NCBI RefSeq assembly: GCF_003334765.1
Contig: NZ_QOWT01000027.1
Source of the DNA: Escherichia coli
GTDB taxonomy: Bacteria > Pseudomonadota > Gammaproteobacteria > Enterobacterales > Enterobacteriaceae
DNA length: 57,545 nt
Reading direction: 5' to 3' (one strand)
Part shown: positions 23,766 to 27,043 of the stretch, one piece after another
How the letters are laid out: each line of letters starts with the position of its first letter
Position numbering within the stretch: position 1 is the first letter of the stretch
Position numbers and translations under genes: made by a program
Notes under the pieces: generated by a model
The model's input: only the letters and a program-made list of their open reading frames with translations
What the model was told of the DNA's origin: nothing
The model's database searches: none

Positions 23766-25787
<2,022 letters not shown>

Positions 25788-25861
25788 GAGTCGCTACCTG
25801 AAGGAGTTGGGCGGGCAGGTATGTAATTTTACTCGTCGTACTTAATTATGCCAACAAATTA

Positions 25862-25881
25862 TACTGGATAAAAAAACAGTT
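25862..25881 (-). promoter_or_regulatory. LexA (SOS) box of uvrB
   Basis: tactggataaaaaaacagtt is the reverse complement of the known uvrB SOS box AACTGTTTTTTTATCCAGTA. Confidence 0.85.
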
Positions 25882-26183
25882 CATCACCATAATATTTCTG
25901 ATACAGCGTAAACTCCGCTGTCAATCATGAGCAAAATTTACTCTGTGGCGAGATAAAACTCCGGCCTTACCGGGTTATCCCCAAAGCAACGGCTTTTTTA
26001 ACATTTGTCAAGATGAGTGATGACAGTTTTATGGCAAGAGATGCCTGTTCAGTGACTGCCATTGCATTTATCTAACCAGTTAAAAAATAAAAGATATTTC
26101 TTTGAGCCGTCTTTAACGCCAATTCGCGTGCAAGCCGCGTATTCTCTCGCTTGCCTCGTGTTTTCTAACTCTAATACACATGG

Positions 26184-26206
26184 TTATCCACAGGAATAGT
26201 GGATAA
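26184..26206. promoter_or_regulatory. pair of inverted DnaA-box-like 9-mers in the uvrB upstream region
   Basis: ttatccaca (26184..26192) and agtggataa (26198..26206) 5 bp apart. Confidence 0.55.
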
Positions 26207-26365
26207 CTGTCTCCAGCCCCTATCCCCCGCCGCCTGGGCAATTCCCACATTCGCCGCATGAGGCGGAAGTAAAATTTTTTTCGTGATTATTTTAGAATTT
26301 AATTGGTTAAATTGCAGTCAATCGAAGACGCGATCTCGCTCGCAATTTAACCAAATACAGAATGG

Positions 26366-27043
26366 CTACAACAAGGCAAGGTTTATGTACTTTCCGGTTG
26401 CCGCATTTTCTGGATTTTCTGCAAGCCAGGGGATCTCTCCCAGCAGCGGCGCGGGAATCATGCGGGTGAGCGTGGTCATATATTCAGCGTGACGTTTTCC
26501 CGGAGGCGTAACATCGTTCGCCACCCAACCCGCCAGAGTCAGTCCGGCGTGTTGTATTACCTGTGCAGTCAACATCGCGTGATTAATACAGCCGAGTTTC
26601 ACACCAACTACCAGTATCACCGGCAGTTGTTCCTGTGTTACCCAATCTGCAAAAGTGAAAGTGTCAGAAAGCGGCGTAAACCAGCCGCCAGCACCTTCCA
26701 CTAACACCCAGTCAGCCTGTTGTTCAAGCGCGCGTAATCCGGCGCTCATTACCAATGATTCTATCGGTCTGCCCTCTTGCGCGCTGATGATGTGCGGCGA
26801 AGTGGGTTCTGCGAAGGTGTAAGGATTTACTGTTGCGTAATCCAGCTGCAGGCTGCTGTTGCGCTGTAACGCCAGCGCGTCGCTATTGCGTAAACCTTCC
26901 GGGGTCTTTTCGCTGCCAGAGGCGACCGGTTTATAACCTGCCGTCCGGTAGCCTGCTGCCTTTGCGGCTTGTAAAAGTGCACAACTGGCGACAGTTTTCC
27001 CCACTTCGGTATCCGTTCCGGTGACAAAATAACGTTTACTCAC
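26366..27043 (-). CDS. bioD: dethiobiotin synthetase
   Basis: 225 aa from the GTG start ([18 protein letters not shown]-loop); ORF track starts 2 codons upstream at ATG 27049. Confidence 0.85.

Follow-up and report, generated by a model that had tools for sequence, protein, structure and literature searches.

The three DnaA boxes found in the bioD-uvrB spacer are almost certainly the core of DARS1 (DnaA-reactivating sequence 1) of E. coli. They were identified in a window of 57,545 nucleotides of E. coli DNA, by which we mean the whole stretch that was analysed. The spacer between the two genes (25788-26365, 578 bp) is 100% identical over 578 bp to positions 812948-813525 of K-12 MG1655 (NC_000913.3), so that the cluster has the sequence and the location of the characterised element. 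Because of this identity, and because the three-box geometry equals both the DARS2 core and the published description, the cluster was assigned to DARS1. The finding is a rediscovery of an already known element, which is credited to Fujimitsu et al. 2009 in PMC5742627, PMC6868365 and PMC4585315. The identity with K-12, the geometry of the boxes, its non-randomness and its conservation were established here; DnaA binding, ADP release, repression and the in vivo phenotypes are taken from the literature.

The positions of the boxes and of the neighbouring features are collected in Table 1. Positions 26184-26206 read ggTTATCCACAggaatAGTGGATAActg, that is TTATCCACA ggaat AGTGGATAA, and the initial annotation of a facing TTATCCACA/TTATCCACT pair 5 bp apart in the 578-bp spacer is therefore exact to the nucleotide. 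The pair lies within a perfect palindrome, GTTATCCAC-N7-GTGGATAAC, at 26183-26207. That annotation named two of the three boxes and missed TAATACACA, with which the layout in the window becomes III-3 bp-II-5 bp-inverted I, box I being opposed to boxes II and III. The published definition of the DARS1 core likewise comprises boxes I-III, with I and II opposed across a 5-bp space and II of full consensus (PMC6868365, PMC5742627). Compared with DARS1 of E. coli K-12 (17.5 min), sequence, boxes, spacing, orientation and position are all equal, and no difference was found.

Table 1. Features of the bioD-uvrB region in the window (positions are those of the whole stretch)
Feature	Position	Strand	Sequence and remarks
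uvrB coding sequence	23766-25787	-	ATG 397 bp from box II
Sigma-70-like hexamers	25826-25854	-	TTGGCA-17-TAAAAT, just downstream of the LexA box; consensus scan, 10/12 matches; context
LexA box 1 of uvrBp2	25864-25879		CTGGATAAAAAAACAG, CTG-N10-CAG; context, outside DARS1
Conserved flank, box-III side	26128-26171		Borders approximate; probably corresponds to the ~50-bp DARS1 regulatory region with degenerate box III'
DARS1 box III (DnaA-box5 of uvrBp3)	26172-26180	+	TAATACACA; box II orientation, 3 bp from box II
DARS1 box II (DnaA-box6 of uvrBp3)	26184-26192	+	TTATCCACA; full consensus
DARS1 box I (DnaA-box7 of uvrBp3)	26198-26206	-	TTATCCACT; one mismatch to TTWTNCACA, at position 9
bioD coding sequence	26366-27043	-	Last gene of bioBFCD; stop at 26366; 678 bp as annotated in MG1655

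Several other elements of the region were recorded. A 16-nt inverted repeat, TAATTGGTTAAATTGC/GCAATTTAACCAAATA, with 94% complementarity and a 26-nt loop, occupies 26300-26357 and starts 9 bp past the bioD stop; on the bio strand no U tract follows it, and it shows little conservation between genera. The DARS1 core is overlapped by two ORFs called mechanically, of 45 aa at 26062-26199 (+) and of 48 aa at 26113-26259 (-), both of them absent from the MG1655 annotation. At 31971-31985 (-) the sequence is identical to the phage lambda attB core, GCTTTTTTATACTAA, which fits the gal-att-bio neighbourhood of the window.

Single DnaA-like 9-mers in the window are at chance frequency, and a consensus box alone is unremarkable: TTATNCACA has 1 match in 57.5 kb, whereas 1.63 were expected, and boxes with at most one mismatch number 93 versus 93.1 in second-order Markov simulations. 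The facing arrangement is non-random. The palindrome with at most three mismatches is expected 0.02 times per window, and in the simulation two boxes with at most one mismatch each, placed head-to-head across a 5-bp gap, are expected 0.05 times per window.

As for conservation, the pattern TTATCCACANNNNNAGTGGATAA was searched in one genome per species and gave at least 120 loci, mostly in Gammaproteobacteria, far above the roughly 9 chance matches estimated for the whole collection (2 x 298e9 / 4^18). These cross-species loci were chosen by exact boxes I and II, so that the conservation of these two boxes is built into the choice and independent evidence comes solely from the spacer, from box III and from the flanks. 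With a third box scored as at least 7 of 9 matching positions, such a box stood at exactly 3 bp on the box-II side in 78 of the 120 matches listed, versus 12 of 120 on the mirror side, and the 3-bp II-III spacing was found in all 78 loci with a good third box. Judged from this asymmetry in the listed matches, the unit under conservation is an asymmetric three-box core and not a mere palindrome. Among the same matches, 53 loci contain uvrB, and in every one its side and strand agree with those in the window. The distance of uvrB was 301-498 bp in 37 of these 53 (397 bp in the window), which belong to Enterobacterales, Vibrio, Aliivibrio, Shewanella and Ferrimonas, and about 1.6-2.1 kb in Alteromonas, Colwellia, Thalassotalea and relatives. 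One Moritella locus was situated between rppH and mutH, which is the DARS2 position, and was the sole non-uvrB locus of this kind among the matches listed. DARS-like sequences at the uvrB and mutH positions have already been reported in V. cholerae.

In an alignment of 20 Enterobacterales, 26128-26207 formed the best-conserved island of the uvrB upstream region, with identities to the window of 0.74-0.99 (except 0.62 at block 26148-26157) over a background of 0.3-0.5. Within this island the spacer between boxes I and II reached 0.98 and the flank on the box-III side 0.62-0.86; the LexA box/uvrBp2 region was next best conserved, at 0.83-0.85. The 76-bp core was present at 95% identity or more in 5425 of 5426 complete E. 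coli genomes, where it carries no RefSeq feature. A reading made from the letters alone had hit upon a real regulatory element, validated by experiment, for which RefSeq has no annotation.

Some individual matches deserve mention. In E. coli VL7S7 (locus L123), an IS1 with a 9-bp target duplication sits at window positions 25882-25890, just upstream of the LexA box, and parts DARS1 and uvrBp3 from uvrBp1-2 and uvrB, so that this strain is a natural uncoupling mutant. A 366-bp contig from the assembly of Leeuwenhoekiella nanhaiensis (Flavobacteriia; L113) is identical to the E. coli DARS1 region over the 73 bp of context that were compared, and is probably a contamination of that assembly. Lineage-specific DARS-like head-to-head pairs were also seen away from uvrB and mutH (L021, L031, L037, L049, L069, L082, L100, L108; L005, L084, L092, L101; L027, L087, L095), in three classes with unrelated neighbouring genes. 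Box III is present in two of the classes, that of Pseudomonas (TGTTCACAaggTTATCCACAgctttAGTGGATAA), which adjoins a gene for an FKBP-type isomerase, and that of Alteromonas, which is about 0.9 kb away from a gene for 4-hydroxyphenylpyruvate dioxygenase. The Vibrio class, in which the pair is followed by AGTTTGGGATAAC, adjoins a ybbP-like ABC permease gene and shows no obvious box III.

According to published work on the identical sequence, ADP-DnaA binds the consensus box II first and then recruits further protomers, to box I by a head-to-head AAA+ contact that needs Gln208 and to box III by a contact of the head-to-tail kind. ADP is released by the protomers on boxes I and II, and the resulting apo-DnaA leaves the DNA and binds ATP, by which initiation-competent ATP-DnaA is regenerated. 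The same three boxes being located in the distal promoter uvrBp3, their occupancy by DnaA also represses this promoter, in parallel to LexA at uvrBp1-2. The head-to-head contact has been ascribed to AAA+ domain III of the box I and box II protomers, with dependence on Gln208 (PMC6868365), and the box III protomer supports the assembly without ADP release (PMC6868365, PMC5742627). DiaA stimulates the DARS1 reaction moderately (PMC6868365, PMC5742627). Binding of ADP-DnaA, ADP release and nucleotide exchange have all been published for a 70-bp fragment with the core (PMC6868365). The complete DARS1 measures 101 bp, consists of the core and a regulatory flank of about 50 bp, and is active in vitro without IHF or Fis (PMC5742627); in vitro more ADP is released when the flank is present, and the degenerate box III' lies within it (PMC6868365, PMC5742627).

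In published deletion mutants of DARS1, the concentration of origins is reduced, initiation is delayed in vivo and fitness is lost, with a strong effect when mice are colonised. A smaller fraction of DnaA is bound to DNA in such mutants, and origin number and cell size are altered. As strains without DARS1, DARS2, datA and hda are viable, DARS1 is modulatory and not essential. Together with RIDA (regulatory inactivation of DnaA), datA and DARS2, it makes up the four extrinsic controls known to act on the ATP/ADP state of DnaA, and it helps to set the timing of the replication start in E. coli. Its overlap with the promoter of an SOS gene is a known link from replication control to DNA repair.

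Besides the boxes, the initial annotation had proposed DnaA input into uvrB expression beside SOS control, with DnaA footprinting or ChIP and promoter mapping as checks. Such input, like results from each of these kinds of check, is already published for the identical sequence. The three boxes have been mapped within uvrBp3, and DNase I footprints showed that ATP-DnaA strongly protects them (PMC6015884). The same nucleotides have been described as an operator under the names DnaA-box5, DnaA-box6 and DnaA-box7 (van den Berg et al. 1985; Arikan et al. 1986; Wurihan et al. 2018, PMC6015884); the numbering runs from proximal to distal relative to uvrBp1. The LexA box placed in the spacer by the initial annotation was also found, since CTGGATAAAAAAACAG matches the published uvrBp2 operator AACTGTTTTTTTATCCAGTA (PMC6015884). 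The sigma-70-like hexamers just downstream of it stand where uvrBp1 is expected and presumably represent this promoter. A simple consensus scan gave no convincing sigma-70 -35/-10 pair for uvrBp3 around the DnaA boxes.

A published DnaA ChIP-seq study also reports a bound region here, listing DARS1 with the double box cTAATACACAtggTTATCCACAg (PMC11317965). Although that paper labels its coordinates NC_000913.2, they agree with version.3. For 'DARS1' it gives a peak centre of 813,331, which corresponds to about 25982 in the window, some 200 bp nearer to uvrB than the core, and hence ChIP alone does not pin binding to the DARS1 boxes. At this position lie two boxes with one mismatch each, TTATCCCCA (25975-25983) and TTTTTAACA (25995-26003), which coincide with secondary conserved islands (0.77 and 0.84, respectively) in the enterobacterial alignment.

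The strongest competing explanation holds that the boxes have been selected mainly as a DnaA operator of uvrB, by which excision repair is tuned to the replication cycle, and that DnaA reactivation is a by-product. A TG to CA change in the consensus box (DnaA-box6) raises uvrBp3 activity 5.9-fold, and chromosomal uvrB expression is more than threefold higher in dnaA(A345S) cells (PMC6015884); furthermore, linkage to uvrB and its orientation are kept throughout the 53 uvrB-containing loci among the matches listed, which span three orders. Yet of the promoter cluster's activity uvrBp3 alone supplies only about 20% (PMC6015884), and the same geometry is seen beside mutH, in DARS2, and at loci that have no uvrB. 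Neither an opposed pair with a fixed 5-bp gap nor a tandem box at 3 bp is needed by an operator, and the effects of the DARS1 deletion on origin number and cell size also speak against a primary role in repair. We therefore regard this explanation as unlikely. The operator and DnaA-reactivation roles are not mutually exclusive, and only the word 'mainly' is doubted. Regulation of uvrB is the lesser of two published functions of the element, so the initial annotation was right but incomplete in seeing the site solely as a transcriptional operator.

The strict linkage could also be read in the opposite direction, with the activity of DARS1 itself being controlled by transcription from uvrBp3 or by LexA. 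The reading is based on the uniform orientation (53/53 among the matches listed) and on a start-codon distance that stays near 300-500 bp in Escherichia, Vibrio and Shewanella alike, which would make the linkage ancient; we consider this reading rather improbable. If it were true, firing of uvrBp3, or LexA at the overlapping weak site, could switch DnaA reactivation on or off, and the SOS state would directly gate the supply of ATP-DnaA, beyond DnaA merely regulating uvrB. The occurrence of DARS-like sequences next to uvrB has already been described for V. cholerae; control of DARS1 by promoter activity is the hypothetical part.

LexA also enters the third explanation, in which the site would be a low-affinity LexA site ('LexA-box4', with CTG at its left end only) relaying SOS control to uvrBp3. 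A weak LexA site does overlap DnaA-box5 and DnaA-box6, and in footprints LexA at high concentration protects the DARS site, where DnaA displaces it (PMC6015884). The palindrome lacks the CAG half of the CTG-N10-CAG motif, which in the spacer occurs only in LexA box 1 of uvrBp2. To this explanation we give only a slim chance, and it would be an extra layer on top of DARS1 rather than an alternative identity.

The palindrome might instead act as an RNA hairpin, for example as the intrinsic terminator of the bioBFCD transcript coming from bioD. It was listed by the consensus scan as terminator-like on the - strand, with a 9-bp stem, and its RNA fold has -13.9 kcal/mol (z = -2.4). Nevertheless, the tail reads CAUGUGUAUU and is not a U run, and only 4 of the 9 stem pairs are G-C; lacking a G+C-rich hairpin with a U tract, the palindrome was rejected as an intrinsic terminator. 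In addition, the palindrome does not include the conserved third box, which fits the DnaA consensus, and DnaA protects the site in vitro (PMC6015884). A hairpin function is thus very unlikely. An Rfam search of the spacer returned no family, only a sub-threshold miRNA match that is meaningless. Finally, a chance palindrome without function, to which the chance frequency of single 9-mers in the window might point, is excluded for practical purposes by the expected 0.02-0.05 pairs per window and by the conservation of spacer, box III and flank across genera, together with the published binding of DnaA.

With the cluster taken as DARS1, a close counterpart is DARS2 of E. coli, situated in the rppH/ygdT-mutH spacer. 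The MG1655 DARS2 core, TTCTTCACAactCTATCCACAgaaaaGGTGAATAA, likewise reads III-3 bp-II-5 bp-inverted I, and ADP is released there by the same head-to-head mechanism. DARS2 differs in its weaker box sequences, CTATCCACA and TTATTCACC, and in its size and needs: it extends over 455 bp, contains sites for IHF and Fis and is scarcely active when these are lacking, whereas the 101-bp DARS1 requires no added factors in vitro. Another pair placed head-to-head across 5 bp, TTATCCACAgaaagCTGGGATAA, was noticed at 1452-1474 of the MG1655 DARS2-region sequence (L002), inside the annotated ygdT ORF. It has CTTACACCA at 2 bp on its upstream side, is very similar to the core of DARS1, and lies near a ChIP-seq peak at 2,969,501 (coverage 213).

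Other DnaA-box systems share less with the element. datA, oriC and the DnaA-repressed promoters dnaA, mioC and nrdAB have the same 9-mer consensus and bind DnaA cooperatively at close boxes, which are typically tandem pairs 2-3 bp apart (PMC11317965). In contrast to DARS1, however, their boxes work head-to-tail, and the outcome is ATP hydrolysis at datA, unwinding at oriC and repression at the promoters. An opposed pair with a 5-bp gap, as found between bioD and uvrB, is specific to DARS (PMC6868365).
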